Shown here: piece after piece, positions 25,768 through 63,051 of the stretch
How the letters are laid out: each line of letters begins with the position of its first letter
How positions within the stretch are numbered: the first letter of the stretch is position 1
NCBI RefSeq assembly: GCF_006345805.1
Contig: NC_043004.1
Location: 77,190,001 to 77,254,000 of the forward strand
Reading direction: 5' to 3'
DNA: 64,000 nucleotides
DNA from: Octopus sinensis
Taxonomy: Eukaryota
Translations under genes and position numbers: made by a program
Notes under the pieces: model-generated
Told to the model about the DNA's origin: nothing
Database searches by the model: none
What the model saw: only the letters and a program-made list of their open reading frames with translations

Positions 25768-63051
<37,284 letters not shown>

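Follow-up and report, generated by a model that had tools for sequence, protein, structure and literature searches.

The locus described here raises the question whether an octopus integrin beta subunit can lose its ADMIDAS and still use its MIDAS, and whether such a loss is accompanied by loss of the talin site. In the textbook integrin switch, the ADMIDAS calcium stands at one end and talin at the other. To our knowledge, beta8 is the only human integrin beta that lacks both the ADMIDAS and the talin site, and since it is alone in this among the human integrins, it does not tell whether the one loss accompanies the other as a rule. We analyzed a window of 64,000 nucleotides from Octopus sinensis (GCF_006345805.1, NC_043004.1, positions 77,190,001 to 77,254,000), for which the initial annotation had proposed a convergent loss of ADMIDAS regulation with a possibly still usable MIDAS. 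All positions below refer to this window.

Gene model of the locus

The modelled gene occupies 25768..63051 on the minus strand and comprises 21 exons and 762 codons, reaching from the PSI domain to the cytoplasmic tail. From 63051 to 25771 the script-built model contains no stop and no frameshift and all phases are consistent; five joints of the betaI region were seen in contigs and the remaining joints were predicted from homology and splice signals. The architecture (PSI, hybrid, betaI, four EGF, betaTD and TM) is present together with the conserved cysteine pattern, 52 of the 56 canonical extracellular cysteines being kept, and the protein aligns end to end to the compared betas at 32-38% identity. 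The gene matches Pfam PF00362 with 44 bits for one exon against a curated cut-off of 24.8, so the motif discussed below is not a chance occurrence. Judged by its sequence, the locus is an intact, spliced integrin beta subunit gene of the PF00362 family. A candidate signal-peptide exon was located ~34 kb upstream in L046, outside the window. Protein searches found neither a full-length protein of this gene nor an orthologue with a full tail; the best match was a 60-aa fragment (P0001, 96%), and the search for orthologues otherwise returned other octopod paralogues only.

Repeats were also recorded in the window. Broken reverse-transcriptase fragments of non-LTR retrotransposons lie at 6400-8300 and 50717-51253 (plus strand). 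Fragments at 17686-18961 and 52109-52339 (plus strand), with reverse transcriptase and GIY-YIG-like pieces, we take to be Penelope-like elements, and those at 22556-23020 and 41654-42133 (plus strand), with DNARPH and WETMPHPPY-type motifs, are presumably mariner-like transposase remnants. High-copy SINE-like repeats at 54690-55060 match tens of thousands of contigs, and many similar copies occur across the window.

The MIDAS/ADMIDAS motif

The codons for DCSVTMKGHR were confirmed; they occupy 58896-58925 of the minus strand (the plus strand translates there as AVTFHCNRAI), within a spliced exon at 58865..58996 (minus strand, 132 nt, phase 1-1, AG/GT bounded) whose splice ends are given by contigs and by the gene model. 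Pairwise alignment of this exon is gap-free to human beta3 97-127 and also to beta1, which in beta3 numbering yields D119, C120, S121, T123, G126 and H127 and agrees with the residues originally assigned, including the extra Cys120 and Gly/His in place of D126/D127. The equivalents of E220 and D251, announced for later exons, were found there as well (codons 53608-53606 and 52744-52742, respectively). By sequence comparison, the MIDAS ligands D119, S121, E220 and D251 are thus kept and S123 is conservatively replaced by Thr; our literature search turned up no study in which Ser-to-Thr was tried at position 123. None of the 130 compared betas (those of 600-950 aa from 179 collected) has Cys120. 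According to PMC6889490, D126 and D127 provide the only side chains for the ADMIDAS calcium. These ADMIDAS side chains are lost by sequence, and the MIDAS is probably usable.

Contigs X1, X2 and X7, spliced and from three studies, span exactly the MIDAS exon without a differing letter away from the exon's ends and continue into the neighbouring exons at 60217 and 55943, their loose ends matching the upstream exon at 60215..60296 (minus strand). DNA run X20 shows 0 differing letters across 58835-58980; the same codons were hence read in all these sequences and SMxDD in none. No run is recorded as RNA, and the contigs were taken as transcripts because their intron-skipping joints are absent from DNA run X19. 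With regard to an alternative canonical exon, tblastn with a canonical beta yielded no second MIDAS exon in the window, and the same-genome protein search with the MIDAS exon returned three matches, namely itself and two paralogues on other contigs.

Distribution of the motif and origin of the loss

A Pfam search of the octopus genome gave 13 matches corresponding to 6 beta loci, which is a lower bound. Exons of paralogues in this genome match proteins labelled as Octopus sinensis. Their motifs read DLSNSMADD (canonical), DLSASMKRS, DLSYTMAKY, DISKTMEKY, DGSKSLSEG and DCSVTMKGH. Loss of the ADMIDAS is evidently common to most octopod paralogues, the Asp pair being missing at five of the six loci found, and DxSxT is present at three of them. 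The orthologues of three paralogues in O. vulgaris, O. bimaculoides and Argonauta hians retain non-canonical motifs. Similar motifs were encountered in a cricket beta (DMSKTMRGH) and in mite betas (DLTFTMKDH, DLSRTMRDH and DLSRTMYVH). Among the 130 proteins T123 was counted in 9 and the absence of an acid at both 126 and 127 in 10, numbers which give no frequency estimate, since the proteins are the highest-ranking matches of searches started from canonical as well as divergent queries. The result that would have spoken against the original annotation, a motif common in molluscan betas, occurred in part: among octopods this motif type is common, though the DD pair is present in all 17 named betas of canonical type from non-cephalopod molluscs. 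In amoebozoan betas the ADMIDAS is described as variable (10.1101/2020.04.29.069435).

Three further betas deserve mention. The paralogue L024/L025 (G000:C15, ~34.47-34.53 Mb; P0176-P0179) has no ADMIDAS (RS/ST), carries S215 and has Gly for D251, a state kept in Argonauta; its MIDAS may be weakened, judging from these residues. L009/L022 (G000:C10213, ~46-48 kb) is a very divergent, compact beta with DGSKSLSEG and Asn at the E220 and D251 positions, and its MIDAS is probably dead. The pair P0025/P0050, another divergent beta, carries D/H at 126/127 and Gly in place of D251, and it has no Trp739. A published description of metal sites or tails of cephalopod beta integrins was not found in a literature search largely limited to papers outside subscription.

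Trees were built without the motif and tail columns from 59 and 32 rows, with two fused proteins >950 aa excluded. In the best trees seven divergent octopod rows were found on one side and the canonical octopus beta elsewhere; the genes of cricket and mites stood beside insects and mites and not beside the octopod genes. The support of the octopod group is weak (SH-aLRT 43, FastTree 0.94) and long branches may attract, the present gene having the longest branch with 2.77 changes per column. In the topology test (LG+G4, fast search, 5000 replicates, 25 rows) a single origin of the ADMIDAS-less octopod and arthropod betas was 40 log units worse (p-AU 0.06), i.e. disfavoured but not rejected, and one origin of the present gene and the cricket gene gave p-AU 0.07. 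Repeated loss of the ADMIDAS in divergent duplicates therefore appears likelier from these trees than a single origin. Of the originally proposed convergent loss with a usable MIDAS, the loss stands and so, probably, does the usable MIDAS, but the loss is probably older than this gene, because motifs of this type occur widely in octopod betas.

Further changes in the betaI and EGF domains

Contigs X2, X7 and X13, from three studies, contain the joints 55222-55857 and 53653-55158, both absent from DNA run X19, and thereby link three exons of the minus strand. The first (55859..55946) encodes the GFG strand and the D158 equivalent, a SyMBS ligand that is kept, as seen from spliced contigs and alignment. 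It is followed by a short SDL2/alpha2 exon of 67 nt (55158..55224) with a GC donor and no equivalents of C177/C184, and by an exon (53567..53653) that is ungapped to beta3 211-232 and holds Ser at N215 (53623-53621) together with D217, P219, E220 and C232. As the contigs join these exons directly, the SDL2 disulfide loop, which we take to be beta3 C177-C184, is absent; the SDL2 loop is 9 residues shorter than in the canonical protostome beta P0043. Misassembly or a missed canonical SDL exon is ruled out by the direct splice joints. Of the SyMBS ligands, D158, D217, P219 and E220 are kept and Asn215, which is kept in 126 of the 130 compared betas, is replaced by Ser.

Two details of this region were noted separately. 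The GC-AG intron donor at 55157-55158 (minus strand) is used in all three spliced contigs examined. An intronic SDL2/alpha2-like stretch at 53115-53210 (minus strand), either chance or relic, was considered as an SDL exon (~53210-53115, NPSFRYVHSL) but discounted, since it runs into a stop, sits to the wrong side of the E220 exon and is left out by all three spliced contigs.

The exon at 52712..52795 (minus strand), placed by contig joints and alignment, keeps the equivalents of D251 and A252. Within the alpha5-alpha7 exon (47317..47499, minus strand), which matches PF00362, alignment to beta1 revealed a beta6-alpha7 loop that is one residue short, with the Asp of the (D/N)S motif kept and its Ser gone. 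Further downstream, alignment of the EGF exon at 40863..41014 (minus strand) showed a cysteine replaced by Tyr, and the next exon (38168-38277) has Cys replaced by Arg. These two positions, lost together, presumably form a disulfide pair corresponding to beta3 C523-C544. Two cysteine pairs (SDL2 and EGF) were accordingly lost as pairs, and with the new Cys120 the ectodomain contains 53 cysteines, one of which must be unpaired.

This unpaired cysteine, the longest branch of the tree and an identity of only 32-38% to any compared beta could also be expected of a gene that decays under relaxed selection and whose changes have no regulatory meaning. We regard such decay as very improbable, as it is at odds with 21 exons free of stops and frameshifts, with spliced contigs from four studies and two organism codes that show 0-2 differences, with the pairwise loss of cysteines and with the invariant MIDAS core. 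Rather, the retention of D119, D158, D217, E220 and D251 on the longest branch and the pairwise cysteine losses argue for a folded protein under selection.

The predicted cytoplasmic tail

The exon at 27790..27953 (minus strand) encodes the transmembrane segment, which matches that of beta3, and the proximal tail. The 26 residues that follow the transmembrane segment in this exon contain neither HDRRE nor Trp739. The exon ends in phase 0 at a perfect GTAAGT donor, the only consensus donor there, and the place and phase of the tail intron are identical in three paralogues. A frameshift in this exon that would hide HDRRE was considered and discarded, as the other two frames hit stops at once. 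The predicted last coding exon (25768..25884, minus strand) is in register with canonical tails over 25884-25771, with KPEN at the first NPxY position, NPRY as distal motif (25842-25831) and the stop at 25770-25768; an AATAAA lies 194 nt past this stop. The last junction, i.e. the 3' junction of the TM exon, was inferred from intron position and transcript length, and the homology of the tail rests on position and register.

Among the 130 compared betas D723 is present in 130, W739 in 127 and the first NPxY in 128, both exceptions to the latter being models that read into the intron; the octopus gene has none of the three. An HMM of 127 tails recovered canonical tail exons at three paralogue loci with 25-41 bits, and found none in the window, where its best hit reached 7.2 bits on the wrong strand; the modelled tail, too, gave no score with the HMM. 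The length of the transcripts fits the model, albeit indirectly: 3' of the 52712 exon the model has 1560 coding nt, and the 1777 nt that X2 holds in this part stop 18 nt beyond the AATAAA, with 1735 nt in X13 and 1616 nt in X7. The predicted tail would thus lack the HDRRE clasp, Trp739 and the talin-binding first NPxY and keep the distal NPxY. The distal NPxY is the one read by kindlin. According to PMC12516132, the membrane-proximal NPxY is bound by talin F3. An oyster beta without NPxY is reported in PMC7390872, and odd tails are therefore not unique to octopus.

An inferred last junction and a modelled tail without HMM score leave some room for an error in the tail model, in which case the ADMIDAS loss would be real and the gene would be one more divergent protostome beta with an ordinary talin-binding tail. 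This is improbable in our view: the replacement of HDRRE is located inside the TM exon itself, the only consensus donor sits at the conserved position, the window is devoid of a canonical tail exon and the transcript length matches the model to within the polyA distance.

Proposed mode of action

On the whole we lean towards the reading that the gene encodes a divergent octopod beta which keeps the MIDAS core, has no ADMIDAS calcium, works independently of talin and lacks the normal sharp switch between low and high affinity. In such a subunit the MIDAS (D119, S121, Thr123, E220 and D251) would likely still bind Mg and the ligand carboxylate. With no acidic side chain to hold it, calcium should be missing from the ADMIDAS, as analogy to beta8 and to engineered mutants suggests; inhibition by Ca and activation by Mn would both be weak, the SyMBS would be weakened, and the short SDL2 might alter the choice of ligand and alpha partner. 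PMC6889490 describes the (D/N)S motif as holding typical integrins in the low-affinity state, and PMC9265148 reports that an ADMIDAS mutation in alpha5beta1 narrows the affinity gap between closed and open forms. At the cytoplasmic end, the predicted tail could neither be clasped by the alpha GFFKR nor be activated by talin; talin binding would be lost and kindlin-type binding at the distal NPxY possibly retained.

With Asn215 changed to Ser and a shortened SDL2, the subunit may also have weak ligand binding or none. Folded and paired with an alpha subunit, such a poor binder or non-binder could serve as a decoy, a dominant-negative partner or a metal-independent receptor. Four changes that fall on the ligand pocket, namely S123T, the absence of D126/D127, N215S and the SDL2 deletion, speak for such a role, as do an ADMIDAS substitution that reportedly inactivates alpha5beta1 (unpublished data cited in PMC1538996) and the dominant-negative role proposed there for zebrafish beta1-3. 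Furthermore, the C15 paralogue has lost D251 and the C10213 locus E220, so this group of paralogues can shed metal ligands. We nevertheless consider this main alternative unlikely, since D119, S121, a hydroxyl at 123, D158, D217, E220 and D251 persist on a very long branch and since beta8 binds ligand tightly without an ADMIDAS, according to PMC6889490.

Returning to the favoured reading of a MIDAS-competent, talin-independent beta, the octopus family offers a series within one genome: a canonical beta, ADMIDAS-less betas with talin sites and an ADMIDAS-less beta without one, by which the coupling of the two losses becomes testable. Other ADMIDAS-less octopod and arthropod betas retain their talin sites, hence the losses are not generally coupled. 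If the prediction holds, a tail that retains just the distal NPxY could serve as a natural probe for what kindlin does in the absence of talin. We tentatively raise the wider possibility, which we hold with somewhat more doubt than conviction, that octopuses independently evolved a beta8-like, talin-independent and possibly kindlin-only integrin in which one subunit gave up the ADMIDAS calcium brake together with the latch of the beta6-alpha7 loop, the alpha-beta clasp of the tails and the talin site but held on to the distal NPxY, as part of an undescribed octopod radiation with five of six beta genes ADMIDAS-less. By itself, the motif recurs among divergent beta paralogues. More unusual are changes that the initial annotation had not noted, namely the losses of SDL2, Asn215, the beta6-alpha7 Ser and, in the modelled tail, HDRRE, Trp739 and the talin site; the replacement of Asn215, the missing SDL2 loop and the diverged tail would matter more for the working of the subunit than the motif does.

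Comparison with known systems

Among other divergent betas, the octopod paralogues P0170/P0175, P0172/P0174 and P0176/P0178 likewise have no ADMIDAS DD, and two of these three groups show DxSxT. The SDL2 cysteines are missing from P0172/P0174 too, S215 is shared by P0176-P0179, and these paralogues form a weakly supported clade with the present gene. In contrast to it, the complete octopod paralogues keep D723, W739 and both NPxY motifs, and none has Cys120; they are annotated only as 'integrin beta-1-like' or 'pat-3-like'. The cricket beta P0036 (G126/H127, T123) and the mite betas P0017, P0055 and P0094 have a near-identical motif but keep N215 and talin-type tails. The missing SDL2 cysteine pair is shared with cnidarian AmItgbeta2 and Podocoryne IntB and with vertebrate beta4, which differ by a DxSxS MIDAS and acidic ADMIDAS positions (EDL in coral AmItgbeta2), the cnidarian genes also by two kept NPxY/F motifs (PMC2397394).

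Zebrafish beta1-3 and the truncated beta1 paralogues resemble the octopus gene as divergent duplicates in which both ADMIDAS aspartates are replaced (DD to SN), the specificity loop is altered and the MIDAS is kept; beta1-3 differs in that all 56 cysteines and the LIMBS are kept, and it arose separately in fish (PMC1538996). The initial annotation had named beta8 as the usual example of a beta without ADMIDAS; beta8 indeed lacks it, but zebrafish beta1-3 does so as well, according to the same paper.

Vertebrate beta8 (alphaVbeta8) shares with the octopus gene the missing ADMIDAS Asp pair, an altered beta6-alpha7 (D/N)S motif and, as predicted for the octopus gene, a tail without talin site. 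PMC6889490 describes for beta8 the absence of the ADMIDAS ion, a disengaged beta6-alpha7 loop and linkage via Band 4.1 rather than talin. By sequence the two differ: the MIDAS exon scores 26.5 bits to beta1 and 13.8 to beta8, the alpha5-alpha7 exon 27.1 versus 14.4, beta8 is the weakest human match for both exons and was outside the tree, and on these sequence scores the octopus gene is not a beta8 orthologue. They also differ in detail, beta8 showing Asn/Asn, Ser at position 5 and the SDL2 disulfide, compared with Gly/His, Thr and no SDL2 disulfide in the octopus gene, which unlike beta8 carries Ser for Asn215 and keeps the distal NPxY and the beta5-alpha6 Thr. By prediction, the octopus subunit would nonetheless work most like beta8, departing from a typical talin-activated beta at the ADMIDAS, at N215, in SDL2 and in the proximal tail.
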